NCBI GenBank assembly: GCA_963674745.2
Contig: CAXXDV010000001.1
Coordinates: 352,001-416,000 of the forward strand
From: Desulfosudaceae bacterium
GTDB taxonomy: Bacteria > Desulfobacterota > Desulfobacteria > Desulfobacterales > Desulfosudaceae
Direction: 5' to 3'
DNA: 64,000 bases
A program made the translations under genes and the position numbers. The notes beneath the pieces are model-generated. The model saw only the letters and a program-made list of their open reading frames with translations. It had not been told where the DNA came from and did no database searches. Of the stretch, positions 1 through 54,541 are shown one piece after another; within the stretch, counting starts at the first letter, position 1; every line of letters starts with the position of its first letter.

Positions 1-1631
1 CACGGCCGCCATCCTGGATAAACAAGGGCGTTTATGCGCCACGTGTGATGGAAGCGGACATCCGCGCCATACGGCGGTTATATCGTGAGAAGGGCTTTTA
101 TCATGCCCGAATAGAGGACGGCACAACCTTCAGTGATGACGGTTCCAGAGCAGATATCCTTATTGAAATTAACGAAGAGAATCAAGTATGGGTTTCATCG
201 GTCCGTTTTGATGGTTTGACGTCTGTACCAGAAGCGCAGGCCCTGCGGATGCTGCGGCTGTCTCCGGGAGTGGTTTTTAAAGACGAAGTCGTGCAGCGGG
301 ACCAGACCGAACTGGCCGCCCTGATTTCGGAAACCGGTCATCCCCATGTCCAGGTAAACTCGAGTGTAGCCATGTCTGACGACGGCAGGTCCGCGGATAT
401 CGTTTACCACATAAACGAGGGGCCCGAAGTAAAAATGGGCCGGACGTTTGTGACCGGCAATCTTCGCACCCGGCCGGGCATCATAAAACAGGAAATGGAA
501 CTGGCAAAAGAAGCGCCTTTCTCTCTGAAAAAACTGGTTAAAAGCCAGCAAAACCTGAGGTCTTTGCAGATATTCAAGTCGGTTGATTTTAAATCCGTAG
601 GCCTGAAAGAAAAAGAAGACCGCGTCCACCTGTTTGTAGAAACATTAGAAAATAAGCCTTTTTTTATCGAACTTGATATTGGTTACAACTCAGAACAGGG
701 CGGATGCGGGAAAGTAGCCCTGGGCGATCATAACCTGCTGGGCTTCAACCGGGACGGGTACTTCAGCGGGAAAATCAGTGAAACCGGTTATCGCGGCGAC
801 CTGGGCGTTCGTTCTCCTCGTTTTCTGTTTCCCCAAACATCTTCAGTCTTTAACCTGCATATCGAAAAATCAGAAGCTTTCAACCAGGACTTCGGCGTCA
901 GGACCCGGGGCGCCTCATTCGGCATCAACCGGCAGTGGCTACCGGCGTTATCCACCAGCATCGCGGCGGACACCGAAAAAAGGCGGCAGTACCCGCTCTC
1001 TTCGTCAGCGGCGGAAGATGAAATTTATGACAATCGCCAGACTGTTTCCCTGACGCCGGGTATTGTTTATAACACACGGGATAACAACATCATACCGACA
1101 AATGGCGTCATGGGCACATGTAATATAACCTTTTCCCGCGGCATCAACAACCAGCCGGATGATTTCATCAAATACCAGGGCTCGCTCCACTTCTACCACA
1201 CCCTTTTCGAACATATCACCCTTGCCGTAACCGGCAGGGCCGGATATATCGACCCTAAAAGCGCCTCAATCGCGGTTGCCGATGATCAGCTCTTCTTTTT
1301 GGGTGGCATATCTTCGGTGCGCGGATATCCCGAGAACCTGTTGCTGCGTGATGACAACGATGATCCGGTCGGCGGCCGCCGCTCTTTATCCGGGACCATT
1401 GAAGCCAGGATGCCGGTCAAAAACATTTTAAGCCTGGTCCTGTTTTATGATGCCGGCAAACTGGACCGCACCTACACACCGGCGGACACGGGAATCCGAT
1501 CTTCGGTGGGGCTGGGGCTGGGGTACCGGACACCGGTGGGGCCCTTGAGCCTTTATTACGGTTACAAACTCAACCGCAAACCCGGTGAAAGTTCCGGCCG
1601 GTTTCATTTTTCCATCGGCTATACGTTTTAG
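1..1631 (+). CDS. Omp85 family outer-membrane protein (BamA/TamA-like), 5' partial
   Basis: POTRA-like repeats (GNLRTRPGIIKQEM), VRGY motif, C-terminal FHFSIGYTF beta-signal. Frame is open from position 3, so the gene starts upstream of the window. Confidence 0.9.
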   Translation, partial: RPPSWINKGVYAPRVMEADIRAIRRLYREKGFYHARIEDGTTFSDDGSRADILIEINEENQVWVSSVRFDGLTSVPEAQALRMLRLSPGVVFKDEVVQRDQTELAALISETGHPHVQVNSSVAMSDDGRSADIVYHINEGPEVKMGRTFVTGNLRTRPGIIKQEMELAKEAPFSLKKLVKSQQNLRSLQIFKSVDFKSVGLKEKEDRVHLFVETLENKPFFIELDIGYNSEQGGCGKVALGDHNLLGFNRDGYFSGKISETGYRGDLGVRSPRFLFPQTSSVFNLHIEKSEAFNQDFGVRTRGASFGINRQWLPALSTSIAADTEKRRQYPLSSSAAEDEIYDNRQTVSLTPGIVYNTRDNNIIPTNGVMGTCNITFSRGINNQPDDFIKYQGSLHFYHTLFEHITLAVTGRAGYIDPKSASIAVADDQLFFLGGISSVRGYPENLLLRDDNDDPVGGRRSLSGTIEARMPVKNILSLVLFYDAGKLDRTYTPADTGIRSSVGLGLGYRTPVGPLSLYYGYKLNRKPGESSGRFHFSIGYTF

Positions 1632-1665
1632 AGGGTTCAAGGGGCCCATCGAATCCTTGAATCCT
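1632..1665. repeat. Short GG(A/G)TTCAAGG-type inverted repeat just after a stop codon
   Basis: AGGGTTCAAGG (1632-1642) vs CCTTGAATCCT (1655-1665); same family as 10987-11065. Confidence 0.6.
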
Positions 1666-1685
1666 TCAGAAGAGCCAGTCAACTA

Positions 1686-1714
1686 TTGAATTATGAGATC
1701 GTTTCTCATATAAT
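1686..1714 (+). promoter_or_regulatory. Sigma70 promoter with palindromic operator in the spacer
   Basis: TTGAAT(1686-1691)-N17-TATAAT(1709-1714); TATGAGA-N5-TCTCATA palindrome at 1692-1710. Confidence 0.7.
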
Positions 1715-1802
1715 AAATAGGATAATGCTTTTAACCCGCTTAAACGGTTACCACTTCTTTTCTGTAACGATTTCAGATTGATAAAAATAAAATGGAGGTT
1801 GC

Positions 1803-3155
1803 ATGGAGCACAAAGACGTCGTTAAAAAAGTAACTGAAATGCTGGTCAACGGTGACATCACCCCCTGGAATGCCGAAGAGGCGGCCGCGGAACAGGGGCT
1901 GGCCGTTCCGGAAAACATTACCGCCGGAGTCGAGGCGCGTCGGGCGTTTGTGGCGCATAAAACCGGGCATGAACTGCATCACCTGGTCATGCCGGAAAAG
2001 CCTTACCATGTCGCCTACCGCTGCCCCAAAGACAATACCCTGTGGACCCTGGCTGAAGGAGATATCTATACCAAGTGCACCCTTTGCGGGTCCGACCTGA
2101 AAATCCTGCCGGAAGACGAACGCCACAAACCCCTGGTCAACAGCTATATCGGCGGCGTGGAAGATTACTGCAGCTATTCCGGCCAGGTCTCTGTCAGCGG
2201 CGATGTGGAAAAAACCTTTCAAATCCTGCTGTGCTGGGGGCCGGGCGTGGGACACATGGGCATCGGCTCGGGCTGTTACAAGCTGAACAAATTCGGCCCC
2301 CTGGAAATCAAAGTCTCGGACTGGGGCATGGCCTGCCGTAACCTGGCTTTTGTGTTTGATGCGGAGACCGACCGTGAAAAGGCCCGCAACCTGATCCAGC
2401 AGAATCTGGACAACATTATCCCCAAAATCACCGAAAAGCATCTGGCCGACTGGAATGGCGAGATTGATTATGTGGATTTCTTATACAAACAGCACCATGC
2501 CGATCGTATCCTGCACTGCTGTTTTTATTCCCGGTTTGACAATCACCGGGGCCACGGCCAGACCTCCCATGCCACTGGTATGGCCAAACTTTTGATCGAT
2601 GACCTGTTCAAACAGAACAACATCCCCTGCCGGCTTTCAGTGGTCGGTATGGGACGGGACGGTGATCTCAAACCATCTCCCAGAAACCGGCGCGGCCGTT
2701 ATGTATCGGCCCAGCAGACTATTCCCGTGGCTGAATACGAAAAAATCATCGGCCGTCCCATCGAGGACTTTTTTTCCTATATTCACCTGGATCAACAAGG
2801 CGTGACCGAAGAAACCGGCTGGCCGGCCTATACCGGTATGGGCGGTGAAATCATTCCGGCCTTTTACCGGACCATGCGCTGCAATCCCCGGCCCTACATG
2901 GTGCCGAGTTTCCAGAAAGTATACGCCAGGATCGTCGGCAATGACCTGGTTTTCGGCGTGGAACTACCCAACGTTGAGGTTGGTATCACCTCCAGTCCGG
3001 AAGGCATTATTCCGCCAATCTCAAGAGAGATCCTGAAAATGTGGGGTATCGGCACAGCCAAGGAATTTGCCGCCGCTGCCGCGGCCATTACCCTGGGCGG
3101 TGAATTCAATTTTGCCACCCTGCACGTTCAGGAACGGATGTATACCGGAAAATAA
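1803..3155 (+). CDS. Divergent class I HMG-CoA reductase-fold protein with CxxD...CxxC zinc-ribbon insertion; canonical catalytic motifs absent
   Basis: SD GGAGG. Collinear resemblance to archaeal HMGR: MLVNGDITPW, EARRAFVAHKTG, NSYIGG, DLKPS..RGRYVSAQ, DLVFGVELPNVEVG, LGGEF. Confidence 0.7.
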   Translation: MEHKDVVKKVTEMLVNGDITPWNAEEAAAEQGLAVPENITAGVEARRAFVAHKTGHELHHLVMPEKPYHVAYRCPKDNTLWTLAEGDIYTKCTLCGSDLKILPEDERHKPLVNSYIGGVEDYCSYSGQVSVSGDVEKTFQILLCWGPGVGHMGIGSGCYKLNKFGPLEIKVSDWGMACRNLAFVFDAETDREKARNLIQQNLDNIIPKITEKHLADWNGEIDYVDFLYKQHHADRILHCCFYSRFDNHRGHGQTSHATGMAKLLIDDLFKQNNIPCRLSVVGMGRDGDLKPSPRNRRGRYVSAQQTIPVAEYEKIIGRPIEDFFSYIHLDQQGVTEETGWPAYTGMGGEIIPAFYRTMRCNPRPYMVPSFQKVYARIVGNDLVFGVELPNVEVGITSSPEGIIPPISREILKMWGIGTAKEFAAAAAAITLGGEFNFATLHVQERMYTGK

Positions 3156-11123: not shown

Positions 11124-11384
11124 TCATAGGCCGAGCAAAGTGTCCAGCCGCCCCTCCTTTTCCAGGGCATGCAACTCATCGCAGTCGCCCACATGAACAC
11201 CGTCGATAAAAATCTGGGGGACCGTGGTCCGGCCCCCGCTTCGTTCAACCACTTCGTCAAGCCAGACCGGGTCCTGGTCCACCCGGCGCTCGACATAGGC
11301 AACGTTTTTTTTATTCAGCAGATTCTTGGCCCGAATGCAATAGGGGCAATAATCCATGGTATAAATTTCAACCGCTTTGGTCAT
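11124..11384 (-). CDS. grxC: Glutaredoxin 3
   Basis: CPYC, TVPQIFI, GDCDEL; start overlaps the upstream stop (ATGA). Confidence 0.9.
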   Translation of the reverse strand: MTKAVEIYTMDYCPYCIRAKNLLNKKNVAYVERRVDQDPVWLDEVVERSGGRTTVPQIFIDGVHVGDCDELHALEKEGRLDTLLGL

Positions 11385-12316
11385 TTCCCGCCTCCCTGCT
11401 GCTCGACTCTGCTGATAAATTCCAGCCATTTTTCCTTGAACACCGCGCCGGGCACGGCGTCCAGTGTCCGCAATTCCACAGTCGGCGCGCTCATATTAAG
11501 GCGGACATCGGTAAAAAGAGTTGTCATATGATAAAAAAAGGATTCGAAATTCGGGTTAACGGTCTGCCAGTATGGTATTTCAGCACCCAGCACCACCGCG
11601 TCCACCCCGACCCGCACAATATCCCGGGCCAGATCAGACGGGGTGGTTTCGGCTGTCGGCCGCTGATAGGGCATGCCGCAACGGCTGGGATCGGTGTTGT
11701 TCCAGATATCCCGCCGATCGGGCCCCATGCAGAAATCCGGGTCTTCCGCCAGACGGCACATCAAACCGAACAGGGTAGGCGTCTCATCAGTTTCCAGAAT
11801 CAGCGCGTGCAGGTGAATAGAAGCCGTACCCTTCATCATTTCGTGACCCCGGGTACCGCTTTTCTCCAGCCGTTTATGAAGATTCACGTATCGCTCGCTT
11901 GTCAGGCAGAGTGGCCCCGGCCCCCGCTCAGGAATATACGGTACCGCTGTGTAATCCACCCCGCACTCCCAGCGGATGGCATCATTGACGGTATCGATTT
12001 CCTTGAGGGTGGCGTCAAAATCGTTTCCGGCATCAGGCAGCAGGGGCATGCTGTGGTACTCGATCTGCCCGCCCGGTTCAAAGGTGACGTGCATGCCCCG
12101 GTCGTTTTCCAGGTACTTACCGTTGTGCGTAAAGCCCAGCTCGGCCAGGCATTTATGCATCTTTTTAACGCAGTTTTCAGTAGGTGGCTCCTTGGCCAGA
12201 AACTCGTATTCAAACCCGTAAGTGCGTTGTGCCCCGGGCGTCATCTTTTTCTCGATCCGATCCAGCAATTCTTTGCTATATACATCGATTAACTGCCGGC
12301 GGTCAATTTCAGTCAT
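11381..12316 (-). CDS. Glutamate--cysteine ligase family 2 (GCS2)-like carboxylate-amine ligase
   Basis: GFEYE, TFEPGGQIEY, MMKGTASIHLH, FTDVR, VELRTLD. Confidence 0.8.
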   Translation of the reverse strand: MTEIDRRQLIDVYSKELLDRIEKKMTPGAQRTYGFEYEFLAKEPPTENCVKKMHKCLAELGFTHNGKYLENDRGMHVTFEPGGQIEYHSMPLLPDAGNDFDATLKEIDTVNDAIRWECGVDYTAVPYIPERGPGPLCLTSERYVNLHKRLEKSGTRGHEMMKGTASIHLHALILETDETPTLFGLMCRLAEDPDFCMGPDRRDIWNNTDPSRCGMPYQRPTAETTPSDLARDIVRVGVDAVVLGAEIPYWQTVNPNFESFFYHMTTLFTDVRLNMSAPTVELRTLDAVPGAVFKEKWLEFISRVEQQGGGK

Positions 12317-12639: not shown

Positions 12640-14535
12640 CTAACACCTACCCCCTATAAAATGCTCATACCACAGTGTAAACACAATCACCGCAAAAACC
12701 CGGTCGGCCCCGGATACCAAGGTGTGCGGCCCGATGTTTTTTGATGAACTGTCTCGGGTTTGAGCGGCAAATACGTCCGGGTCCACAACCCCCTGCCGGG
12801 CCACCATGTCGCCGCGGACCACCTCTTCAATGGCTTCAGGCAGGTTGTCCGGATCGGACAGCCAGTCGGCCATGGGAATGGTAAACGGCTGTTTTTTACG
12901 AAAGGCTGTGGCCCGGTCCAATATCCCGAATCGTTCAAAAGCCCGGCGGCAGACCACCTTTTCCATATCGGTAGCGATGTTTACTTTCAGGTTCACCGGC
13001 AGCCGGGCGGCAAACTCGGCCAGCCGGTAATCCAGAAACGGGGTCCGGGTTTCCAGGGAGTGCCGCATGGAGAGTTTGTCCAACCGCAGAATCACATAGT
13101 CCGGCAGCCGGGCCCGGCTTTCAAAGGCAATAGCCGTATTGACCGGATGACCGTCCGGATCTACCACAGGCAACGCATCGTCCGGGAAACGGGTGTCCGG
13201 ATAATCCTGCCCCAACAGCTGTTTTAATGATGACACGTCAAACAACTGCTCGCTCTGGATATAACGTTTGGCGGGATCACGATCCCGGACCGCCATATAT
13301 GGCGCCAGTTCGGGATAGACGGCGTCAAGCCGTTTTTGTTCGGCCGATCCCAGGACGGAATAGACAACCGCCGCCGCTTCGATGAGAAACTTGCGGTACC
13401 CGGCAAAGATCTCGTCCGCCCCTTCGCCGGTAACCACCACCTTCAAATGGCTTCCGGCCAGTTCACACACCTGGTCGGTGGGCAGGATCGTCCCCAGAGA
13501 AATCGGTTCTTCAATGGTTTCAACGATTCCGGGCAATCTCTCCAGCATCTGCCGGCCGCACATACGAACGATATGCTCACTCCCCGTAAACCGGTGCCGG
13601 TTGGCCGCCAGAAAAGTTTTTACCGCCTCCAGTTCATTATACGCCTGCTCTTCAAACGATATGGAAAACAGCCGCAGCGGTCCATGAAAATCCACGGCCC
13701 GGGCAGCTACAGCGGAAGAGTCAATGCCGCCGCTGAGCAATGCGCCGACTTCCACATCCGAACGCAGCCGGATACGGACTGCGTCGGAAAACAGGTCGTA
13801 AAATTCTTCTTCGGCTGTTTCGACCGTCATATCCGGATCAGGCCGATCGGGCATATGGTTCCAGTAACGACGGATCTCATGTTCACCGGTACGCAGGTCA
13901 TAAACCAGGTAACTTCCCGGCGGCAGACGGAACACGCCTTCGAACATGGTCTGGGAACCGGGCACATAGCGATAGGTAAAATATGTACCCACCCGGGACC
14001 GATTCAGCCCGGCCGGACGACCGCTGCCGGCCAGAAGAGGCTTGATTTCGGAAGCGAACACAAAACGATCGTCATGGACCGTATAATAAAGCGGCTTGAT
14101 ACCGAAACGATCGCGGAACAGCACCACTTGCTCGTTGACGGGATCAAAAACAGCGCCGGCATACATGCCGTTAAGGTGGTTTAAAAAATCAAGGCCCTTT
14201 TGGCGGTAGGCATGCAGAGCGACCTCGATGTCGCCTTTGGTGACAAACGGCTGATTTCCCAGTTCCTGCCGCAGCTCGATGTAATTATAAACCTGGCCGT
14301 TGCAGACGATGGCCGTTCCATCCGCCGGACAGACAATGGGCTGCATGCCGGTCTCAAGGTCCAGGATGGACAACCGCACCAGCCCCAGCCCCACCCGACG
14401 TTGTCCGGCAGCAAACACCCGCTGTTGCTGATCATCCGGCCCGCGATGACGCTGCAGCCCGCCCATATCTGCCAGACGATGCAACACCTCATCTTTACCC
14501 AGAGATTTCGTTATGATACCGCTGACCCCACACAT
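12640..14535 (-). CDS. asnB: Asparagine synthase (glutamine-hydrolysing) family amidotransferase
   Basis: MCG N-terminus, HRGPD, RDRFGIKPLYY, LSGGIDSS, TGEGADE, ETRTPFLD. Confidence 0.9.
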   Translation of the reverse strand: MCGVSGIITKSLGKDEVLHRLADMGGLQRHRGPDDQQQRVFAAGQRRVGLGLVRLSILDLETGMQPIVCPADGTAIVCNGQVYNYIELRQELGNQPFVTKGDIEVALHAYRQKGLDFLNHLNGMYAGAVFDPVNEQVVLFRDRFGIKPLYYTVHDDRFVFASEIKPLLAGSGRPAGLNRSRVGTYFTYRYVPGSQTMFEGVFRLPPGSYLVYDLRTGEHEIRRYWNHMPDRPDPDMTVETAEEEFYDLFSDAVRIRLRSDVEVGALLSGGIDSSAVAARAVDFHGPLRLFSISFEEQAYNELEAVKTFLAANRHRFTGSEHIVRMCGRQMLERLPGIVETIEEPISLGTILPTDQVCELAGSHLKVVVTGEGADEIFAGYRKFLIEAAAVVYSVLGSAEQKRLDAVYPELAPYMAVRDRDPAKRYIQSEQLFDVSSLKQLLGQDYPDTRFPDDALPVVDPDGHPVNTAIAFESRARLPDYVILRLDKLSMRHSLETRTPFLDYRLAEFAARLPVNLKVNIATDMEKVVCRRAFERFGILDRATAFRKKQPFTIPMADWLSDPDNLPEAIEEVVRGDMVARQGVVDPDVFAAQTRDSSSKNIGPHTLVSGADRVFAVIVFTLWYEHFIGGRC

Positions 14536-14680: not shown

Positions 14681-14727
14681 CAAATGCATATCCGGCTGGC
14701 ACCGGAGACTGAATTATGGACAAATTT

Positions 14728-15366
14728 CTACTCATCAAGATTAGGCTCAATGGCGCAGGCCGTGCCGGTCTCGTATTGATCTTTAAAAACAGAGTTCGCC
14801 AGCATATTGAAGAAAAACATCAATTTGAATACCGCAAAAACACAGGTCTGCTCTGTGGTTGTATAAAGCTGTTCAAACGCTGCCGGCAGGTCCTTGTTCG
14901 GAAACGTTCCCTCATGGGTAAGGTATTGACACACCCATTGCAACGCCACCCACTCCCGGTGCTCAAATACATCCGGAGAAAGCTCGATCAACGCATTCAT
15001 CTCTTCCCTGGATAAACCGGCGGTTCGACCGAACCGCCTGTGGGCGGCCAGTCACTGGGGGCAACCGTTTCCCATGGCCGTAACGATCATGATTTTCTCC
15101 CGGAAGCCCGGAGGTATCGCCCGGAAAACATATACCCGCAGCAGGGGATAAGTGTACCGCAACAAATCGCCCGCCCGGAAAAGCAGGTGTCCCGGCCCCT
15201 GATAACGCCGCTTGTCCGCGTAACCCGATTGAGCGATCCGATCTTTTTCAAAAAACCGCGCATCATATCGCCGGCCGCCGGCGGTCCGGACAAACGAATA
15301 AGCAACTACCAACAGGGGCGACAGGCCCAGGACAATCAAGAAAGCAAAAATTATCTGTATCCACAT
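14728..15366 (-). CDS. Selenoprotein, AhpD/CMD-like with CxxU motif and N-terminal membrane anchor (212 aa)
   Basis: ORFs 15052-15366 and 14728-15000 are in frame across a single TGA: REKIMIVTAMGNGCPQ-U-LAAHRRFGRTAGLSREEM; hairpin downstream of the TGA. Confidence 0.85.
15019..15054 (-). promoter_or_regulatory. Sec UGA codon and bacterial SECIS element
   Basis: UGA, 13 nt, then GGCGGUUC-GGUC-GAACCGCC (8-bp stem, G-led loop). Confidence 0.8.
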
Positions 15367-15388
15367 TGCACTGATTCCTTATTTTAAC

Positions 15389-16207
15389 CTACGACAGGTC
15401 CACCAGTCCTGAAATCCGTCCGATGGCCCGGCTGATATAGGTTTCGTCTTCAACCACCACGTCTATGGCATCCGCCGGGCAAACCGTCGCGCACCGGCCG
15501 CATCCCCGGCACGCGTCCTGGTCAATGACCGCCCGGCCATCTTCAAGGGTTATGGCATTCACAAAACAGACATTGTCCGTGCATGTGCCGCAGCCCACGC
15601 ACTGGTCGGTCACGGCCACATGAACACCCGGCATGCGGGACACCTTGGAACTGATATCCGGTGTAATATCCGGCAGCATCTTCCACAGGCAGCAACAGGG
15701 ACAGCAGTTGCAGATGGTCATCAACCTGTCCGGAGGCCCCACGTTGAGCCAGACCGTGTCCAGTTTGTTGCGGCCGATCAGGTGTACCAATCCGGCTTCA
15801 CGACAGCGCCGGGCATGATCCAGGGCTTCTGCCTTGGTTACCTGCCGGCCGAACCGGGGATTGATGTCACTGGCCGCCGACCCCAGAAAAATGCAGCCGT
15901 ATTCTACCGGATAATCTTTGCAATGGGCCGAATCCCGACAGATGCAGAAATCCATGACCCAGTGAAAGGCGGCCTTTCTGATGAAGTGCTCCACCACCTG
16001 CGAGGGAACAGCCATGCTTTCCGGCTGTTCAACCGACCTGTTGACGGGAATGACCTCATCTTTCGGCAAATAGATGATTTCATCGCCCTCGAAAAGCATG
16101 TGCTCCACCACCCGGCCGATGGGACGGAAATGAGTCAGCCGGGCCAGGAGAAACCGGCCGGCAAAAGTCTTGTTGATCAGGGTTTTGATCCAGTAAGGAC
16201 TGCTCAT
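15389..16207 (-). CDS. 4Fe-4S dicluster ferredoxin-domain protein
   Basis: CICR...C...C, ICNCCPCCC, CVGCGTC, CRGCGRCATVCP. Confidence 0.85.
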   Translation of the reverse strand: MSSPYWIKTLINKTFAGRFLLARLTHFRPIGRVVEHMLFEGDEIIYLPKDEVIPVNRSVEQPESMAVPSQVVEHFIRKAAFHWVMDFCICRDSAHCKDYPVEYGCIFLGSAASDINPRFGRQVTKAEALDHARRCREAGLVHLIGRNKLDTVWLNVGPPDRLMTICNCCPCCCLWKMLPDITPDISSKVSRMPGVHVAVTDQCVGCGTCTDNVCFVNAITLEDGRAVIDQDACRGCGRCATVCPADAIDVVVEDETYISRAIGRISGLVDLS

Positions 16208-17413: not shown

Positions 17414-19066
17414 TTAAAAATGCTGTGCCTGGGGAGAATCGGGAAAACGGGCAAAGCAGGCCCGGGCCTGATCAATCCGGCCCAGGTTGAGGTAAGTTGT
17501 TCCCAGGCAGAGGTTGAGCGGTTCGCTGTCTGGAAAGTGAGAAAGCCCCTGGCTCAAGATATCAAGGGATGCCCGGCTGTCTTGCTGCTGCTGATACAGC
17601 ATGCCCAGCCCCAGAAAAGCCCGGTGATCCGGGTACCATAGCAGTGCCTTGCGGTAAAGCTGTTCGGCCAGTTCCTGCTTTTTTTTAATTTGTGGATGGG
17701 CGGCATAATCGCCATGGGTAAAGGTCATGGCCAGCCGGGAATAAAAATCGGCGTGCCCGACGGCAAAATCGGGATCATCCATCAGGGTATGGGCCAGTGC
17801 GTATTCGGGCAGGCGTTCATAAAAAGCGTCCCGCAACCGTTGCCCAAATTCCATGACCGCTGACCGGGACAGGTCGGGATCGATCTCAAAATAAGGAATG
17901 TCTTCTGTCCGCTGCAGCCAGATGTCATCGGTCTGACCGCTGCGCTTCAAATAATCCTGGTAAAGAGCGGTACCCGGAAACAGGGTCAGCATGTAAAAAA
18001 CCGCGCTCAAGGGCTTGATCTCATCGATCAGGTCCAGCGAGGCCTGGATGGTGGCGTCGGTTTCTCCGGGTGAACCGTAAATAAAATAGGCCCGGGCCAT
18101 GATGCCATGGCGAACGGTTTGCGCAAAGGCCTGAAGGATACGTTTTTCGGAAATGCGCTTGTTCAATTTTTTACGGATTTCTCCGGAGCCGCTTTCCACC
18201 CCGTAGCTGATCTGGATGCAGCCGGCCCGGCGCATCCAGTAAAGAATTTCCGCATCCACCAGGTCGACCCGGGAAATGGCCGCCCAGGTGATGGGCAGGT
18301 TTTCCTTGATGATGGACCGGCAGACAGACAGGACAAGCGCCTTTTTCAAGGTAAAGGTATCATCGGAAACGAAAAAGAACCGGATGCCTTTTGCATACAG
18401 CCGTTGCAACTGGCGCACAAAATATCCCGCGGAATGAAACCGAACCCTGCGGCCCCAGAAGGCCGGTGAACCACAGAAGGTGCAGTTCTGCGGGCATCCC
18501 CGGCTGATGGCCACATGCTGGAAGGAAAAATACCGGGCCGGATCGGGCAGCTCGTCCAGGTCATCAATCAAATCCGGCGTACCGGTCTGGACAATCGCTT
18601 CGCCGTTCCGGTAGGCCAGGCCCTTGATGTTGGAAAGAGCCGGTTTTTGATCCGAGCCCAACGCCTCTATCAGATTCAAAAACGGATATTCACCCTCGCC
18701 GACAACGACATAATCGATCTGAGGGAAGTGGACCAGCAGGTGGTGCCACAAAAAGGTGGCGCCGACACCCCCGAAAACGGTAATAATGGTTGGATCGATT
18801 TTCTTGACCTGTTCGGCCATGTCGATACCGCCCCAGCGGTTGGCATGGACAATGGAAAACCCGACAATATCCGGTTTGATGTCATTCACAAATGAACAGA
18901 TATCGCCGGACGGGATACCCGGCTTGTACATATTCAGCAGCTGAACCCGGTGCCCGTGCTCGGATAACAAGGCGCCGATGGAGTAAAGCCCCATGGGAAC
19001 GGCGCTGACATCGGCCTCATCCGTCCGGTTGTCAAGAAAGCTGGGGTATACCAGAAGAATCTTCAT
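17414..19066 (-). CDS. B12-binding radical SAM protein with C-terminal TPRs
   Basis: MKILLVYP..PMGL, SRGCPQNCTFC, YGVESG, TPR-like tail. Confidence 0.85.
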   Translation of the reverse strand: MKILLVYPSFLDNRTDEADVSAVPMGLYSIGALLSEHGHRVQLLNMYKPGIPSGDICSFVNDIKPDIVGFSIVHANRWGGIDMAEQVKKIDPTIITVFGGVGATFLWHHLLVHFPQIDYVVVGEGEYPFLNLIEALGSDQKPALSNIKGLAYRNGEAIVQTGTPDLIDDLDELPDPARYFSFQHVAISRGCPQNCTFCGSPAFWGRRVRFHSAGYFVRQLQRLYAKGIRFFFVSDDTFTLKKALVLSVCRSIIKENLPITWAAISRVDLVDAEILYWMRRAGCIQISYGVESGSGEIRKKLNKRISEKRILQAFAQTVRHGIMARAYFIYGSPGETDATIQASLDLIDEIKPLSAVFYMLTLFPGTALYQDYLKRSGQTDDIWLQRTEDIPYFEIDPDLSRSAVMEFGQRLRDAFYERLPEYALAHTLMDDPDFAVGHADFYSRLAMTFTHGDYAAHPQIKKKQELAEQLYRKALLWYPDHRAFLGLGMLYQQQQDSRASLDILSQGLSHFPDSEPLNLCLGTTYLNLGRIDQARACFARFPDSPQAQHF

Positions 19067-19079
19067 GAAGCAGCCGATG

Positions 19080-20558
19080 TCAGGGTAAATATTTTCCCGG
19101 TCGAAAATACAGGGCCGGGTCACCCTTTTTCTTGGCCAGGGTCAGCGGCAGCTTAATGCCGTTTTCCTTTCCCTGGTCCTTCAAATAAACCGTTTCGGCA
19201 TGACTGCCCGCATACTTTCCCAGCTGGTAATCGGCCAGCGACTCGGGCACCGCGATCGTCAACCCGACCGTGACTTTGCAGCCATTTCCCCATCCCTGGA
19301 CCAGGTCAAACACGGGATCAAAATCAGAGGGAAGATTGGATTTTGAGTTCCACTCGATTTCTCTTAATTCCATGGCGGAGAGTTGCCCCAACGCCTCCAG
19401 AGAGAGGGAACGGTCTTCCGGATAAAGGACGGCGGTCACCCGTCCTTTATCGGCCATGACCCAGATATTGAAATCATAGTTGAAAACCCATTGACCGGTG
19501 ACGGTAACCCGTACCCCCTTTCCCTTCCAGGGGTTGTCGCTGACCTGCAGGTCCATGTTCTTATACATGATCTCACCGACCGTTTTGCCCCCCCTGTGCG
19601 GCGTAAGATCCAGGTAGGCGGTTTCAAACGGCAGCTTAATATCAACATTGCCTTCCCAGACTTCACCGGGCTCAATACGGATATCGGTATCGTCGAACCA
19701 GTACTCCGGCAACTGCCGGCCCTCCAGGTCCATGGCTTCAATACGATCCCGCTGATTCTGGGCAACGGAATCATGATGCACAGCTCCCGGAGGCGGGCCG
19801 GTCTCCGCCATCGGGCTGACATAAGTAGGGTCTTCCGCCATTTTAGCCATTTCAGCCGCGTATTGATTCTGTGAATACCCCGGCCCGGCCGACGGCCCGT
19901 TGTTTGTGGAAGAGGAATCGCTTCTGACAAGAAAGTATCCGACAAAAAAAACGACCACGAACCCCAGCAAGAGGGCGAACATTTTCCCGTTACCGCTCAA
20001 TATCCCGCCGGATGTGATGTGAGACTTGGCCGGAACGAAGGGTATGTCGGCGGCCGGATTCTTTCCGGCCGAAGGAGGTTCTTCTTCAGTCGCGGGTTCA
20101 ACGCTGGCATCATTCTTACCGTATTTGGCCACGATGATATGACACACCGGGCATTGGCCCATGCCGTCAAAGGCCGTAATCAGGGGGTCGTCCTGATTTT
20201 GTGCCTGATAACCGCAACCGGGGCAGGATGGCAGCTCAGAAGCCCCGTCGGTGTCAACAGGGCCGCGATCAACTGCCAATGCCATTGAAGACCTGGCCGG
20301 CGCCTGACCCTCCATCCATTCCAGGCGGCAATTCAGCCCGCAGTCTTTAATCATCTTTTGAAGCTGGAGGGCCTGCTGTTGACTCAAACCTTTTTGAATA
20401 ATCTTGGGCTTACCGCCAAGATAGGATTCTGCTTTCTCCCGGCTGACACCGAACCTGTCGACCAGGTCCGCCAGCGCCTGCTCACGGCTGACCCCTTCGG
20501 ACAGATCCGGGATCAGAACAACACGAAAACCTGATGTTGATTGTGTATTCATAATCAC
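19080..20558 (-). CDS. Hypothetical single-pass membrane protein with zinc-ribbon motif
   Basis: CPGC...CPVC followed by one hydrophobic helix (FALLLGFVVVFFVGYFLV). Confidence 0.7.
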   Translation of the reverse strand: MIMNTQSTSGFRVVLIPDLSEGVSREQALADLVDRFGVSREKAESYLGGKPKIIQKGLSQQQALQLQKMIKDCGLNCRLEWMEGQAPARSSMALAVDRGPVDTDGASELPSCPGCGYQAQNQDDPLITAFDGMGQCPVCHIIVAKYGKNDASVEPATEEEPPSAGKNPAADIPFVPAKSHITSGGILSGNGKMFALLLGFVVVFFVGYFLVRSDSSSTNNGPSAGPGYSQNQYAAEMAKMAEDPTYVSPMAETGPPPGAVHHDSVAQNQRDRIEAMDLEGRQLPEYWFDDTDIRIEPGEVWEGNVDIKLPFETAYLDLTPHRGGKTVGEIMYKNMDLQVSDNPWKGKGVRVTVTGQWVFNYDFNIWVMADKGRVTAVLYPEDRSLSLEALGQLSAMELREIEWNSKSNLPSDFDPVFDLVQGWGNGCKVTVGLTIAVPESLADYQLGKYAGSHAETVYLKDQGKENGIKLPLTLAKKKGDPALYFRPGKYLP

Positions 20559-37734: not shown

Positions 37735-39357
37735 GTGCGTATTCTTTTATCATCCCCATTTAAACCGTTTGGCATTGACGGTAAGTACGGCCGGAAAGAG
37801 GCCCTGGCGGAAATTTTTCATAATCAATTAACGCTCAAACAGGGCGCGTTCTCAGTAAGGAATTTTACAACATCAAATGCATTACATGTAATCGCCAACA
37901 ATATCGATACGCCGACAACGGTACTGGACTGCCCTACATTAAAGCAATATATAAAAGAAATCCGAAATGATTATGATGTCATAGGAATAAGTGCGCAGTT
38001 ACCGAATTTTAACCAACTGAAAAAAATGCTACACGTCACCCGTCAGTATGCCCCTAAGTCTCGAATTGTCGTGGGTGGATTTGTAGCGGCGATCCCGGAC
38101 TTAAAAAATCAAATAGATGCGGATGACATCTGTAAAGGAGAGGGTATCGGCTTTATGCGCAACCTGCTGGGACTGCCCCCTGAATACAGATATCAAAACC
38201 CGCGCAGTATTTTTTCAGAAACAAAAGAAATCTTCGGGGTACCGGTCATCGGATTAAAAAGGCCGTTAATGGTAGTCGGCCTCGGGTGTACTTATGGTTG
38301 CGATTTTTGCAGTACCAGTCATTTTTTCGGAAAGAAGCATATTAACCTTTTAGATTCCGGAAAAGATATTTTTAACGAAATTTTATTTTTAAATGAAAAA
38401 TATCCGGATGCCACCATTGGCTGTGTAGGGGATGATAATTTTTTAGTTGACCTTGAACGGGCCGACGAGCTCAGGAAGTGCCTTGTAAAAAGCGGGCAGG
38501 CAGTCAAACTATATATATTCGCATCAGCAGACAAAATCGTTGATTTCGGTATTGAAAAACTGGCCGAAACCGGGGTGGATATCGTTTGGATCGGCCGAGA
38601 GAGCAAATTTTCCGCTTATAATAAAAATCGGAATATTAATTACAAAGCGCTTATCGCGGAAATGAAAAAATACGGCATCAAAACCATCATGAGTTCAATG
38701 TTGCTGGTTGATTCGCATTCAAAAGAAAATATCTACGATGATATTGATGCGCATATTGCCGCGGAACCGGTTTTCAGTCAGTTCCTGTTTTACACCCCCA
38801 CACCAGGAACGCCCCTTTATCAACGGTTTTTATTAGAGGGACGAATCAACACCGAACTGGCCTATGAGGATTATAACGGCCGAAATGCTTCATTAATTAT
38901 CCATCCGGCATTTTCCCCCCAGGAGGCAGAGAAAGTTCAAGATTTCGCATATCAAAGGGATTATGAAAGATTAGGGCCTTCACTGGTCCGCTATATTGAG
39001 ACGAATTTTACCGGATGGCTGCATATGAAGGATTCAAATAAACAGATATTACGTACCAGGGCCGAGACCTTTGCTAAAAAAATGTGGCAATACAGGGCGC
39101 TTTTGCATGCTATCGAACTTTTATCTTCCAGTAAACTGCACAAGGAAATGGCCAAGGATGTTCGCCGCCAGATAGAACTTTCTTTTGGGAAAACAACCAT
39201 TACCGAAAAAGCGATTGCCACGGGATTATGTATCAGCGGTAAAATCAGGGAAGCCCGGACATCGCTTTGGGGGGACAACATGCAGCCTTCATCTTATAAA
39301 TTTTATTTTAATCACACGCCATCGAAAAAAATTATCATGAAACGGATGGTGATTTAG
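37735..39357 (+). CDS. B12-binding radical SAM protein (AT-rich gene)
   Basis: MRILLSSP, IVVGG, GLGCTYGCDFC, DDNF, PTPGTPLY. Confidence 0.85.
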   Translation: MRILLSSPFKPFGIDGKYGRKEALAEIFHNQLTLKQGAFSVRNFTTSNALHVIANNIDTPTTVLDCPTLKQYIKEIRNDYDVIGISAQLPNFNQLKKMLHVTRQYAPKSRIVVGGFVAAIPDLKNQIDADDICKGEGIGFMRNLLGLPPEYRYQNPRSIFSETKEIFGVPVIGLKRPLMVVGLGCTYGCDFCSTSHFFGKKHINLLDSGKDIFNEILFLNEKYPDATIGCVGDDNFLVDLERADELRKCLVKSGQAVKLYIFASADKIVDFGIEKLAETGVDIVWIGRESKFSAYNKNRNINYKALIAEMKKYGIKTIMSSMLLVDSHSKENIYDDIDAHIAAEPVFSQFLFYTPTPGTPLYQRFLLEGRINTELAYEDYNGRNASLIIHPAFSPQEAEKVQDFAYQRDYERLGPSLVRYIETNFTGWLHMKDSNKQILRTRAETFAKKMWQYRALLHAIELLSSSKLHKEMAKDVRRQIELSFGKTTITEKAIATGLCISGKIREARTSLWGDNMQPSSYKFYFNHTPSKKIIMKRMVI

Positions 39358-43318: not shown

Positions 43319-44752
43319 TCAGCGATAGACAATCAACTTCATACCGGTGACACATTTGCCAATAATATCCGCCGGGCCGGTTAGGTTTAACAGGTACCGT
43401 TTCAGCCGCCGGGGATGAAAGTAGTATCGCCGGTAAAATGTTTTGATCATGGCACAGATCCGGGCTTCGTCGATCCCGGCGGTCCAGAGGGTTATCCTGG
43501 AATTGGCCTCCGGCGCCCGGACGAATCTCTGGAACCATTCACGGTCATAGTTCGGATCATCGCTGGCTTCTTCAAAAATTCTCGTCCCGGGAAAAGGAAT
43601 AAGCGGATTACAGAAGACATAATCCGCGTCAAGCTTGAAAACAAAACTGAAGGTGTTCTGAATGTTCTCTTCTGTCTCCCAGGGGAAACCTATGATAATA
43701 TTAGCGACTGACATCACCCCGCTATTCCGGCACATGGAAAACGCCTGATCAATCTGTTCTCGGGAGATGTGCTTGTTGATTCGCCTCAAGGTATAAGCAT
43801 TAGCGGATTCAATGCCGAACTGGATGCGCTCGCAACCGGCCGAGGCCATTTCCCTCAACAACTCCCGATCAATACAGTCCACGCGCGTCTGGCAGGACCA
43901 GGGCAAACAGACCCCGCTTTTTTTTATAAACCGGCAGAGATCAAATACATGGTCCCGGGAAAAGGTGAACACGTCGTCGCTGAACTGTATGGAGCGATAC
44001 CCCATATCTTTACAGACCAGCATTTCTTCGGTCACCAGAGAAGAATCGCGAGGCAGAAAATAGCGCTCCTGGTTGTTGCAGAAACTGCAGTTATAAGGAC
44101 AGCCGCGGCTGGCCACCATCAAGGCGCATGGATGATGACGATTTACAGAGAATCGATGTTGTTTTATGTCAAGCACGCTTCTATCCGGAAACGGCAACGC
44201 GTCGAGAGCGCTTTTATCGAGCCAGGTCGGCGGCGTTTGCACTATCCGGCCCATCACCCGGCAGGTCGTCCCTGGAATACCGTCCAACGACCGGGATTGC
44301 CGCACCCGTTCGACAATCTCCATCAGCGGAATTTCGCCCTGCCCCTGAACGGTAATGTCGAACCGTCCACGTTCCAGCGTGTCTTCGGGGTAAGTCCACA
44401 TGTGCGGTCCCCCTCCGACGATAATCGTATCCGGAAGATACTTACGGATGGTATCCGTCAGCAGGCAGGTACCGTACCAGAAAGGGGAAATCACGGAAAG
44501 GGCGATGATGTCCGGCTGAAACTGCTTCAAATGATCGATAAACCGCCCAATTTTAGGTTGGTTTGGTGTCTGAAAGTTGAAAAGGTCAACCTCTGCCCGG
44601 GTATTCTCCTCCAGATAACTCTTGATGTATAACAAGCCCAAAGGCGGGGCGAAATCATGCATACGAAATGCAATACGATCATTAATACTCGGGAATATCA
44701 TGCGGCCCGTTTGGGGGGGATTAATCAGCAGTATGCGAATATGTCCGGACAT
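43319..44752 (-). CDS. B12-binding radical SAM protein
   Basis: ILLINPP, PPLGLLY, GGPH, SRGCPYNCSFC, FGIES. Confidence 0.9.
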   Translation of the reverse strand: MSGHIRILLINPPQTGRMIFPSINDRIAFRMHDFAPPLGLLYIKSYLEENTRAEVDLFNFQTPNQPKIGRFIDHLKQFQPDIIALSVISPFWYGTCLLTDTIRKYLPDTIIVGGGPHMWTYPEDTLERGRFDITVQGQGEIPLMEIVERVRQSRSLDGIPGTTCRVMGRIVQTPPTWLDKSALDALPFPDRSVLDIKQHRFSVNRHHPCALMVASRGCPYNCSFCNNQERYFLPRDSSLVTEEMLVCKDMGYRSIQFSDDVFTFSRDHVFDLCRFIKKSGVCLPWSCQTRVDCIDRELLREMASAGCERIQFGIESANAYTLRRINKHISREQIDQAFSMCRNSGVMSVANIIIGFPWETEENIQNTFSFVFKLDADYVFCNPLIPFPGTRIFEEASDDPNYDREWFQRFVRAPEANSRITLWTAGIDEARICAMIKTFYRRYYFHPRRLKRYLLNLTGPADIIGKCVTGMKLIVYR

Positions 44753-46070: not shown

Positions 46071-47489
46071 ATGAAACCTTATCGCGTACTTTTTATTAAA
46101 CCACCTGACAGCGACGTAAATGTTCTTGCACTGGATGTCCCGTTGGGAATATTATACCTGTCCGCCTGTTTAAAAAAAGATCTCGGCCAGAAGGTAGCAG
46201 TTGATTTTATTGACCTGCGCCTGGAAAAAACCGCCCCTCAGCCTCTGACCGCAAAGATAAAATCCTTTTCTCCGGACCTGATCGGCATCAGCCTGCTGGC
46301 TTTTAACCGGCTTTTTATTAAACGGTACATCTCACTGATCAAGGAGCTAGAGCCTTCGGCCGCCATTGTCATTGGCGGTCCCGGCGCCACCTATGGCTAT
46401 GATGAATTCCTCCAACAACACCCGGAAATTGACGCCGCAGTGCTTTGGGAGGGTGAGGCTTCCTTTCCGCGGCTGGTCAAAGCGTTTATGTCAGGCGGTG
46501 ATATTAAAACCGTCAGCGGTATCGCCTGCCGGGAAGGCGACCGGGTCGTTCTTACCGAAAAAGCCGATTACATCCAGAATCTGGACAGCCTGCCCTTTCC
46601 CGACTACGATTTGATTCCTTTTGAACGATACTGGGGAGAAGAACCGCAACCGCAAATGAACGGTGTACTTGCCGACAAAAAATACACGCACATCATCAGT
46701 TCCCGGGGCTGCCCGTTTAACTGCATCTACTGCCACAAGATATTCGGCCAAAAATTAAGAAGCCGCAGTCCGGAAAACTTTGTCAATGAAATCAGATGGC
46801 TCAATCAGGCCTACGGTGTCCGGGAATTTCACATTGTGGATGATAATTTCAACTTTGACCGGGAGCGGATGCACATTATTCTGAATATGATCATCGACAA
46901 TCAGCTGGACATCAAGATGGCCTTTCCCAATGGCTTGAGGGCAGACATGCTGGAACCCGAGGATCTGGACCTGTTGAAAAAAGCCGGTGCTTACATGGTC
47001 ACCTTCGCCGTCGAAACAGCTTCTCCACGGCTCCAGAAAATCATCCGGAAAAACCTGAATATTGATAAGGTGACTGAAAATATCAATTACGCCGCATCCA
47101 TCGGCCTGATTGTGAAAAGTTTTTTTATGCTTGGGTTTCCCGGTGAAACACCGGAAGAAATTCATCAGACCATCAATTATGCCGTAAAATCAAAACTTGA
47201 CCTGGCCCATTTCTTTACCGTTACCCCTTTTCCCGGTACTGCTTTAAGACAGTTGGCCGAGGAGACCTATCCGGACTGGCAGGATCAGGCGCTTTATCAC
47301 TACTGGCCGGACGAACCTTTTTACCAGCAGGCCACCGGCTACAACCTCAACCGCATGCAGAAAAAGGCATACCTGAGGTTCTATGGATCACCCCGGATGT
47401 TCAAAACATTCTACAAGTCCCCACTGAAACTGAAACGGCTGAAAAAATGGGCCCTGTTTGCTGCCCAAATTCTCTGGAAAAAGAACTAA
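46071..47489 (+). CDS. B12-binding radical SAM protein
   Basis: VLFIKPP, VPLGILYL, GGP, SRGCPFNCIYC, DDNF, PFPGT. Confidence 0.9.
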   Translation: MKPYRVLFIKPPDSDVNVLALDVPLGILYLSACLKKDLGQKVAVDFIDLRLEKTAPQPLTAKIKSFSPDLIGISLLAFNRLFIKRYISLIKELEPSAAIVIGGPGATYGYDEFLQQHPEIDAAVLWEGEASFPRLVKAFMSGGDIKTVSGIACREGDRVVLTEKADYIQNLDSLPFPDYDLIPFERYWGEEPQPQMNGVLADKKYTHIISSRGCPFNCIYCHKIFGQKLRSRSPENFVNEIRWLNQAYGVREFHIVDDNFNFDRERMHIILNMIIDNQLDIKMAFPNGLRADMLEPEDLDLLKKAGAYMVTFAVETASPRLQKIIRKNLNIDKVTENINYAASIGLIVKSFFMLGFPGETPEEIHQTINYAVKSKLDLAHFFTVTPFPGTALRQLAEETYPDWQDQALYHYWPDEPFYQQATGYNLNRMQKKAYLRFYGSPRMFKTFYKSPLKLKRLKKWALFAAQILWKKN

Positions 47490-50781: not shown

Positions 50782-52178
50782 ATGCCCAGAATACTGCTTA
50801 TTAAGCCCTATTCTTACAGCGACGTCATCACCCCCCCCCCCTGGGACTGGGTTACTTGGCGGCGAATCTGGATCAGAACACCGAGGTAATGATTTTTGAC
50901 GGTGTCCGGGACCAGTTGACACCCTCAAAGCTGACGGAGACAATCAAATTGTTTCAACCGGACATGGTCGGGTTATCAATTGTGTCTGCAGCATCAAAGA
51001 CGGTCCTTGATGATATCCGGGTTGTCCGTCGCCTTCTGCCCGACGCCGTCATTGTCGCCGGCGGTCCGCACCCCAGCCTGTTGCCCCACGAATTCAACGC
51101 GGCCGCGGAGGACAGTATTGACTATATATTACGTGGCGATGCTGAAACGGCATTCAGGATGCTGGTGGCGCGATGCTGGAATCAACGCAGCCGGGATATT
51201 TCCAGCCGGGACATCGCGGATATCCCGGGAATCTGGTCAAAAACACGGGACGGTATGGTTTCTTCGGATATACCGCTCAACCAGGCCTGTGATGAACTCG
51301 GCATCCCGGCATGGGATTTAATGCCGCCGGCCGAATATCCCAGGGTTCCTCAGGGGGAATTTTTCAAAAATTTTCCTGTGGCCCCGGTAATTACCAGTCG
51401 TGGATGTCCCTTTGAATGCGGTTTCTGCAGCGTGGCGGCTTTGAAGGGAAAAACGGTTCGGTTTCGCAGCCCCGACCTGATCGCCGACGAAATTCAACTC
51501 CTGAAAAACAAATTCGGCGTAAAAGAAATCCAGTTTGTTGACGACAATCTTACGGTTTCCAAAGAACACGTGCTGAGCGTCTGCGAAGCCATGCTAAACA
51601 GGAATCTAGACATTCCCTGGTCTTGCCCCAACGGTGTTCGAGTCGATACCCTGGATGATGACATTGTCGAGGCCATGAAAGCTGCCGGATGTTATTCTGT
51701 TTCCGTTGGTCTGGAAACCGCCAATCCCGACGTTCTGGAACGAATGAACAAGCATCTTGATCCGGATAAAGCCATCGAAGCCGTTCACCGGGTTGCCCGC
51801 AAAAAGATAGAGGTCAACGGCTTTTTTATTTTAGGTTATCCAGGCGACAATGAGGCGAACATTAAAGACACGATCCGCCTGGCCAAACGACTGCCTTTGA
51901 CCCGGGCACACTTCATGCTTTTTACGCCTTTCCCGGGTAGCCGGGAATACGAACGGCTGTCCCGGGTTTCCGGGAATCGTGTACCACATGACGCCACTTT
52001 TGCCCAGGTCTCTTATGTGCCACACGGGATGACGAAAAAGGATCTTAAACGTCTTCACCGACGGGCATTTATCGAATTCTACGCCCGTCCTGCTGCCGCT
52101 TGGAAGCTGGTGAAGGCAGTAAATTCTCTGAACGGGCTTTACTATTTTCTGCGAAGAACGTTTCACTGGTTGGGATAA
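50782..52178 (+). CDS. B12-binding radical SAM protein, frameshifted at a C11 tract
   Basis: MPRILLIKP...VITPP | LGLGYLAA split across 50831-50841; GGPH, SRGCPFECGFC. Confidence 0.85.
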
Positions 52179-54482: not shown

Positions 54483-54541
54483 ACATGTGTGCTTAATTAA
54501 TAGCCGCCTTTAATTTGCACCAAGACTACACGGAGTCAGCC

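Follow-up and report, generated by a model that had tools for sequence, protein, structure and literature searches.

A predicted membrane-anchored C-x-x-U selenoprotein of the AhpD/CMD superfamily, stored as two half-proteins, in a Desulfosudaceae genome

A stretch of 64,000 nucleotides from a Desulfosudaceae bacterium (GCA_963674745.2, contig CAXXDV010000001.1, positions 352,001 to 416,000; hereafter the window) holds on its minus strand a reading frame, 15366..14728, that is broken by a TGA codon, and the locus raises the question of whether this codon ends one short protein or is decoded within a longer one. An earlier note on this DNA had favoured the second possibility, describing a hidden, membrane-anchored, AhpD-like CxxU selenoprotein split by the open reading frame (ORF) caller. 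We translated the frame 15366..14728 with TGA read as selenocysteine (Sec, U), and found a single in-frame TGA, at codon 105 (15054..15052), within a translation of 212 residues. The residues around codon 105 read NGCPQ-U-LAAH, in the context ...FREKIMIVTAMGNGCPQ-U-LAAHRRFGRTAGLSREEMNALIELSPDVFEHREWVALQW..., which places the TGA at the second Cys of the motif, as the note had it, and on the minus strand, which it had left unstated; beyond the TGA the frame continues with GLSREE and REWVALQW, in keeping with the GLSREE and RE..AL.W pattern reported before. From the sequence comparisons presented here, the locus is very probably one gene, predicted to encode a 212-residue membrane-tethered AhpD/CMD thiol/selenol oxidoreductase in which UGA codon 105 specifies selenocysteine. 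Its features are as follows:

14728..15366, minus strand: predicted AhpD/CMD-like selenoprotein coding sequence, 212 codons including Sec105, then a TAG stop
14730..14728, minus strand: stop codon TAG, the true end of the read-through frame
15052..15054, minus strand: in-frame UGA predicted to encode Sec105, aligned with the second Cys of C-x-x-C
15375..15380, minus strand: Shine-Dalgarno-like AAGGAA inside the 22-nt spacer before the ATG, from direct reading of the sequence
15040..15099, minus strand: active-site signature E90-x11-C102-P-Q-U105-x3-H109, from conservation across 86 aligned sequences
15292..15360, minus strand: predicted N-terminal hydrophobic membrane helix, approximately residues 3-25, from hydropathy and AlphaFold2
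14752..14754, minus strand: Cys205, a conserved tail cysteine in the disordered C-terminal tail, from the aligned sequences

The protein database holds this gene as two separate proteins, P0271 (104 aa) and P0272 (90 aa), which confirms that it was split by the ORF caller, as the earlier note had supposed. A near-length search with the read-through protein as query found no full-length entry for the gene in the protein database and returned no match at all, not even to its own protein, because the database stores the gene as two halves. Closer relatives (60-85% identical), recovered by a search for shorter proteins, are also stored as halves, and all six of their six N-terminal halves end in C-x-x. 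Two plus-strand ORFs at the same place, 14716-15015 and 15040-15387, were set aside as antisense shadows with no Pfam match.

An exhaustive HMMER search of 1.84 billion representative sequences recovered 176 relatives at E ≤ 0.001, of which the best 150 were classified. Ninety-nine of these cover the UGA column, and 96 of them carry Cys there, the other three having Trp, Phe and Val (one each); of the same 99 relatives, 98 retain His109, 93 retain Glu90 and 89 retain the first Cys. The rest of the best 150 of 176 consist of 20 N-terminal fragments that end one residue before the UGA column, all of them in C-x-x, 30 C-terminal fragments that begin at query positions 107-150, and 1 other relative. 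When 86 sequences were aligned, H109 proved invariant, and R89, E90, N100, C102 and the C/U105 column were conserved at 90% or more.

At the DNA level, one scan of GTDB species genomes yielded 20 related loci (L001-L020), with TGA at the Sec column in 16 and TGC or TGT in 4. Homologues with Cys at the TGA position, which the earlier note had anticipated, were thus found among proteins and genomic loci alike. The TGA loci from Desulfobacterota metagenome-assembled genomes (MAGs; L001-L006) are 52-59% identical to the window protein, and the remaining TGA loci come from Actinomycetota MAGs and a few unclassified MAGs; the Cys loci are L008, from a Geothermincola MAG, and L018-L020, from three Bacteroidales MAGs. 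The tblastn matches to the related loci run in one frame across the TGA, over residues 1-212. Deltaproteobacteria and Actinobacteria are among the three selenoprotein-rich groups named in the available part of one survey (PMC1794560), and the closest relatives of the window gene lie in Desulfobacterota and Actinomycetota MAGs, phyla that match groups in that part of the survey.

The frame stays open with TGA read as any residue, and 1 of the 99 covering relatives has Trp at the column, both of which would fit decoding of the UGA as a standard amino acid, whether the whole code had changed (tables 4 or 25) or Trp or Cys were inserted by read-through at this site alone. However, TGA ends 9 of the 42 long ORFs in the window, and the focal gene is the only TGA-split ORF pair there that is not covered by other long ORFs. 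Since these nine ORFs use TGA as a stop and no other gene in the window needs read-through, a genome-wide code change is excluded. A second TGA serves as the real stop in 8 of the 20 related genes, the column is that of a catalytic Cys in all but three of the 99 relatives, and a hairpin resembling a selenocysteine insertion sequence (SECIS), described below, is specific to the TGA forms; we consider decoding as a standard amino acid extremely improbable.

This hairpin, GGCGGUUC-GGUC-GAACCGCC, starts 13 nt after the UGA and has a perfect 8-bp stem and a 4-nt loop, as the earlier note had described it:

15019..15038, minus strand: upper stem-loop of the putative bacterial SECIS, 8 bp, loop GGUC, loop start 21 nt past the UGA
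15008..15051, minus strand: extended SECIS-like helix with lower pairs CUGG/CCAG and GCC/GGU, from the minimum-energy fold, weakly supported

The isolated stem-loop has an energy of -13.8 kcal/mol, and the 50 nt from the UGA have a minimum-energy fold of -21.2 kcal/mol, in which the extra lower pairs begin right after the UGA. The case for the hairpin rests on the relatives, because the RNA evidence from this single sequence is only weakly above chance. We compared the 17 TGA genes (the 16 related loci and the window) with the four Cys genes. All 17 TGA genes have a hairpin of 6-10 bp at the same place, with the stem starting 11-15 nt after the UGA, the loop at nt 21 and energies of -7.9 to -13.8 kcal/mol; the apical loop is GGUC in 11, GGUCG in 5 and GGAA in 1. 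None of the four Cys genes has the hairpin, only 1-2 bp being found at the equivalent place. Pairing was tested in an ungapped alignment of the 12 sequences with four-nucleotide loops, where a 7-bp core is paired in all 12 and two core pairs show double-sided changes, from G-C to A-U once at the first, and from G-C to A-U four times and to G-U twice at the second. Overall, 77.8% of cells are paired, compared with 31-44% when the partners are slid by 1-3 columns, whilst the lower helices are poorly conserved (62-64% of cells paired in the 12 sequences). Codon choice within the hairpin is similarly skewed: GGT encodes the loop Gly in 16 of 17 TGA genes but accounts for 38 of the 303 other Gly codons (12.5%) of these genes, and TTC encodes the Phe in 17 of 17, compared with 107 of 177 Phe codons elsewhere. 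Once these comparative data are added, the predicted hairpin is well above chance.

In the experimentally characterised SECIS of E. coli fdhF, SelB contacts a bulged U; the window stem is perfect, without such a bulge, and the window element is a predicted SelB site. The fdhF element (NC_000913.3) has the same GGUC apical loop, in a stem-loop likewise 3' of the UGA and inside the coding sequence, and its loop starts 18 nt after the UGA, compared with 21 nt in the window gene, one codon farther. The bSECIS model, as given in the available part of PMC13188914, has an apical loop of 3-9 nt with G in the first two loop positions, an upper stem of 4-16 bp, 16-37 nt from UGA to loop and a minimum free energy of -7.5 kcal/mol or lower. 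The window hairpin (4-nt loop, 8 bp, 21 nt, -13.8 kcal/mol) falls within the constraints set out there, as do the hairpins of all 17 TGA genes.

The hairpin also bears on whether the TGA marks a dead or misread gene. TGA is one base from both TGC and TGT, and an apparent frameshift at a run of eight A is seen elsewhere in the assembly, so that a TGC or TGT could have been mutated or miscalled to TGA, leaving either a dead gene or an ordinary CxxC protein. Against this, TGA recurs at the same column in 16 of 20 genomic loci from two phyla; C-x-x ends are shared by the 20 representative fragments and by six of six closer N-terminal halves; the downstream frame is intact, with 52-59% identity across the TGA; and a position-specific hairpin accompanies TGA and never the Cys codons. 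A pseudogene or sequencing error is exceedingly improbable on this evidence.

Read through the UGA, the protein matches the Pfam family CMD (PF02627) over residues 83-144 at 33.1 bits (cut-off 23) and the AhpD core domain TIGR00778 at 33.1 bits (cut-off 27.8). Both matches belong to the read-through protein only, and either half alone has no Pfam match at E ≤ 1. An AlphaFold2 model built on the 86-sequence alignment (mean predicted local distance difference test score, pLDDT, 92.5; predicted template-modelling score, pTM, 0.87) contains a helix at 2-29 and a helical bundle at 58-193; C-x-x-U lies at the N-terminal end of helix 103-115, and residues 202-212 form a disordered tail (pLDDT <50). 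The best Foldseek matches are all AhpD/CMD structures, with a probability of 1.00, the top one being P. aeruginosa AhpD 7xw1 with a template-modelling (TM) score of 0.75 over the target. PA0269, Atu0492, the debrominase Bmp8 and S. pneumoniae AhpD are further matches by structure and profile, with M. tuberculosis AhpD more remote; when PDB sequences were searched with a profile, 7xw1 came out at 6e-21 and M. tuberculosis AhpD at 2-3e-4. The catalytic signature is complete in the window protein (E90, C102, U105, H109) and follows E-x11-C-x-x-C-x3-H, which we take to be the AhpD proton-relay and dithiol motif, as in M. tuberculosis AhpD. Domain matches (PF02627 and TIGR00778), signature and fold thus bear out the AhpD-like CxxU assignment of the earlier note.

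P. aeruginosa AhpD and PA0269 (7xw1, 2ijc, 2o4d), the best matches (profile 6e-21 to 1e-20, TM 0.68-0.75 over the target), are soluble CxxC proteins of approximately 145 residues without a membrane helix or tail, and are about 19% identical to the window protein. M. tuberculosis AhpD (1knc, 1gu9, 1me5) shares the Glu-x11-Cys-x-x-Cys/Sec-x3-His signature and the all-helical fold, but the window protein differs in its predicted Sec in place of Cys and in its membrane anchor, and the structural match is weak (TM 0.41-0.49). The window protein falls short of the cut-off of AhpD proper, TIGR00777 (15.3 bits against 191.95), and no AhpC-type peroxiredoxin was found either in the 42 long ORFs scanned in the window or in the 72 ORFs that flank the related loci.

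Termination at the UGA, were Sec decoding lacking or lost or selenium limiting, would yield a 104-residue membrane peptide and possibly a separate 90-residue protein, and the database ORFs P0271 and P0272 match these products exactly. Termination at a Sec UGA is a known outcome under selenium limitation, and counts for such a reading, as does the fact that no Sec machinery was seen within the 64-kb window. However, the 17 codons that separate the UGA from the internal ATG encode the invariant His109 and a conserved RFGR-x-AGLS segment, and the ribosome must for that reason read through the UGA. Neither half matches any Pfam family, and in the high-confidence AlphaFold2 model both halves contribute to the AhpD fold. 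We judge that termination is very unlikely to be the normal fate of this gene.

Several observations weigh against the assignment of Sec to codon 105. Within the 64-kb window we detected neither any tRNA gene nor another candidate selenoprotein, and its 42 scanned ORFs gave no SelA, SelB or SelD domain; the absence of Sec machinery carries little weight, because the window represents 64 kb of a 2,694,360-bp contig. The 66-nt context of the hairpin has a z of -1.41, with 18 of 200 shuffles folding as well, and its own minimum-energy fold is a competing hairpin. Synonymous recoding of the 16 codons after the UGA gives an equally stable hairpin in 9% of cases and keeps at least 6 bp in the same register in 28%; since recodings often retain the hairpin, the amino-acid sequence (R-F-G-R-T-A-G) itself favours the stem. 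A search of the whole window against Rfam at gathering scores gave no match, and the site at E ≤ 10 gave two chance-level matches, which is uninformative. The 17 hairpin sequences are related and their counts are not independent, although they come from two phyla and the protein identities reach as low as approximately 33%. Foldseek E-values are modest (best 3.3e-3, none ≤ 0.001), the assembly is not error-free, given the apparent frameshift at the A8 run of a NifS-like gene, and we infer the substrate, electron donor and membrane topology.

With codon 105 taken as Sec, the window gene is a new member of the already known AhpD/CMD CxxU selenoproteins. C-x-x-U proteins described as AhpD-like, CMD-domain, 'distant AhpD homolog' and 'AhpD-related' have been catalogued since 2005, in the available parts of PMC1088965, PMC2398784, PMC1794560, PMC1976440 and PMC13188914, and the earlier note was right that AhpD-like selenoproteins were known from such prokaryotic surveys. 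The family labels in these sources, as far as they were available, include 'AhpD-like' (COG2128/TIGR01926), 'CMD-like' (PF02627), NF041047 and 'AhpD-related hypothetical protein 1' (NF041238). Such proteins are frequent in Deltaproteobacteria, and seven AhpD-like selenoprotein genes are reported from Olavius symbionts (available part of PMC1976440). A 2026 database sorts its 57,630 selenoproteins from bacteria into 111 families and subfamilies (available part of PMC13326102). The window protein shares with the AhpD/CMD CxxU selenoproteins of the surveys the superfamily domain, Sec as the second residue of the pair in C-x-x-U and abundant Cys homologues, and likewise has its putative SECIS just 3' of the UGA and its home in Deltaproteobacteria/Desulfobacterota.

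Within this superfamily, the window protein misses the cut-offs of TIGR01926/COG2128, the 'AhpD-like' family of the surveys (13.2 bits against 81.8), of NF041047, the GSU3128 family (seleno)protein or 'distant AhpD homolog' (18.5 against 110), and of NF053654, the YciW-related (seleno)protein (11.8 bits against 310); the six NCBIfam families matched at E ≤ 1 do not include NF041238. The family listed as 'CMD-like protein, PF02627, CxxU' in the available part of PMC13188914 has a domain and motif that are both found in the window protein, a comparison made by description only. We built a quick maximum-likelihood tree of the 86 sequences in IQ-TREE, with SH-aLRT support only, in which the window protein falls in a clade of 19 rows (SH-aLRT 99) with 17 Sec forms, the other two rows (P0002 and L008) carrying Cys; two changes over the whole tree are enough to explain the Sec label. 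This clade, which is marked by a membrane helix at the N-terminus and by the conserved Cys of the tail, is possibly a distinct membrane-anchored subfamily of AhpD/CMD CxxU selenoproteins. The finding adds a membrane-anchored branch to these proteins and no new principle, Sec decoding, SECIS type and CxxU chemistry all being as already described. It also concerns annotation: the window gene and at least 20 representative clusters of relatives appear in public protein sets as 'hypothetical proteins', truncated or split and without any assigned domain, and because the genes are stored as halves, the redox function and selenium use of these Desulfobacterota and Actinomycetota are under-counted.

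The hydrophobic segment of the window protein has a mean Kyte-Doolittle value of 2.67 over 19 residues and, with the AlphaFold2 helix at 2-29, supports the N-terminal transmembrane helix proposed in the earlier note. No positive charge precedes the helix and three follow it (R27, R32, R33), a pattern shared across the window's clade, where none precedes and two or three follow. By the positive-inside rule, this distribution would place the catalytic domain of the clade on the cytoplasmic face; in the actinobacterial clade the flanking charges are ambiguous for topology. The tail cysteine occurs in 13 of the 17 Sec forms (the window, as Cys205, with L001-L004, L007, L009-L013, L015 and L017), and those without it are the short-tailed L005 and L006 and two fusions to GcvH, L014 and L016. 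Among Cys relatives, P0004, P0018 and P0042 carry lipoprotein-like signals on reading of their sequences, L008 (L008:3581-4210) has a twin-arginine-like RRSFL (RR-x-FL) motif, and L018-L020, the Bacteroidales forms, end in a hydrophobic C-terminal tail. On these sequences, association with membranes seems to be general in the wider family, with a topology that possibly differs.

How such a protein would work can be sketched from the established bacterial Sec pathway and from the chemistry of M. tuberculosis AhpD. SelB-GTP-Sec-tRNA(Sec) would bind the hairpin and deliver Sec to the UGA. The Sec105 selenolate would then attack an oxidised substrate, the candidates being a hydroperoxide and a peroxiredoxin-type partner with an oxidised cysteine; Cys102 would resolve the adduct to give an intramolecular selenenylsulfide, and a dithiol donor would reduce it. 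The fusions offer a hint as to the donor. In L014 (4860-5867) and L016 (4917-5933), both from uncultured-bacterium MAGs, the frame of the Sec domain runs on into an entire GcvH lipoyl-carrier domain, which matches GCV_H at E = 5e-35 and 3e-34, respectively, with the lysine of VES-x-K present. We found no description of an AhpD-GcvH fusion in literature naming both AhpD and GcvH. In M. tuberculosis, electrons pass between the lipoic acid of E2 subunits and the proteins AhpD and AhpC (available part of PMC12440151), and the lipoamide reductant of that AhpD/AhpC/lipoamide (DlaT)/Lpd system matches the GcvH domain of the two fusions. This Rosetta-stone-type link points to lipoamide as a candidate electron donor, one that can be tested. 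Because GcvH replaces the tail cysteine in the fusions, and because of the mycobacterial lipoic acid exchange, we infer that a mobile thiol or dithiol arm, either the tail Cys or lipoyl-GcvH, would swing in to recharge the C-x-x-U centre.

A bolder proposal is that the 19-row clade represents an undescribed subfamily of AhpD-type peroxidase/reductase at the cytoplasmic membrane face that would act on membrane-borne oxidants such as lipid hydroperoxides, recharged by a swinging arm of tail Cys or lipoylated GcvH, as a functional bacterial counterpart of eukaryotic GPX4 with a different fold. We hold this to be doubtful. If it were true, most members of such a GPX4-like subfamily would be hidden in databases as two 'hypothetical' half-proteins.

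The gene immediately upstream encodes an Fe-S protein:

15389..16207, minus strand: 272-aa Cys-rich protein with a C-terminal 2x[4Fe-4S] ferredoxin domain, from Fer4 family matches

Its stop lies 22 nt from the ATG of the selenoprotein gene on the same strand, and this confirms the tight linkage to a Cys-rich 4Fe-4S protein described in the earlier note. No terminator-like site was seen between the two genes, and with so short a spacer they are probably co-transcribed, as judged from their layout. The Fe-S protein belongs to a family of 3442 relatives, named 'ferredoxin' or '4Fe-4S binding protein', with 18 invariant Cys, including C-N-C-C-P-C-C-C; orthologues 60-79% identical are widespread in Desulfobacterota. 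Its N-terminal domain of approximately 190 residues is uncharacterised, has no Pfam model and holds 10 of the invariant cysteines (C88, C90, C96, C105, C166, C168, C169, C171-C173).

The earlier note had read this pair as a ferredoxin-coupled membrane redox module, that is, a ferredoxin-driven disulfide or selenenylsulfide reductase at the membrane, a proposal compatible with Sec decoding. The spacing, shared strand and lack of a terminator-like site would fit, as would L002, where the Fer4 stop overlaps the AhpD-like start by 4 nt, and the 10 extra invariant Cys, including the C-P-C in CNCCPCCC, could hold a further cluster or a redox disulfide. However, a Fer4 neighbour is present in only 1 of the 20 related loci, L002, and its protein is a distant paralogue, being only 27-28% identical to that of the window although 60-79% orthologues exist. 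No Fer4 neighbour stands beside L001 (Desulfosalsimonadaceae) or L003 and L004 (Desulfosudaceae), and yet two relatives of the Fe-S protein are named from these same two families. Elsewhere the neighbours vary: an enoyl-CoA hydratase (L001), radical SAM proteins (L003, L004), KatG and TetR (L005), TetR (L006), and an aldehyde:ferredoxin oxidoreductase with an HD protein (L009, L010). Gene order is thus not conserved, the linkage seen in the window does not carry over to the module, and we regard such a module as unlikely.

Downstream of the AhpD-like gene in L002, at L002:6059-6514 by the contig end, is a second weak match to the window Fe-S protein (22% identity, E = 2.8e-4). In L005, a KatG-type catalase-peroxidase (945-3128) lies upstream of the AhpD-like selenoprotein gene, and a TetR regulator lies convergently downstream in both L005 (4457-5218) and L006 (2414-3163); these neighbours give a weak hint of an oxidative-stress context.

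Elsewhere in the window, the NifS-like cysteine desulfurase gene (54515-55709, plus strand) is split into two overlapping frames, with Aminotran_5 positions 1-229 matched in 54515-55321 and positions 245-369 in 55137-55709; the break, near 55233-55240 at the run of eight A, is either a true frameshift or an assembly indel. The window also contains six B12-binding radical SAM genes (17414-19123, 37735-39357, 43319-44752, 46071-47489, 50856-52178 and 52179-53426), which sit among genes for TPR proteins, glycosyltransferases and methyltransferases, together with an asparagine-synthase-like gene (12640-14535) and a GCS2-like ligase (11381-12316).

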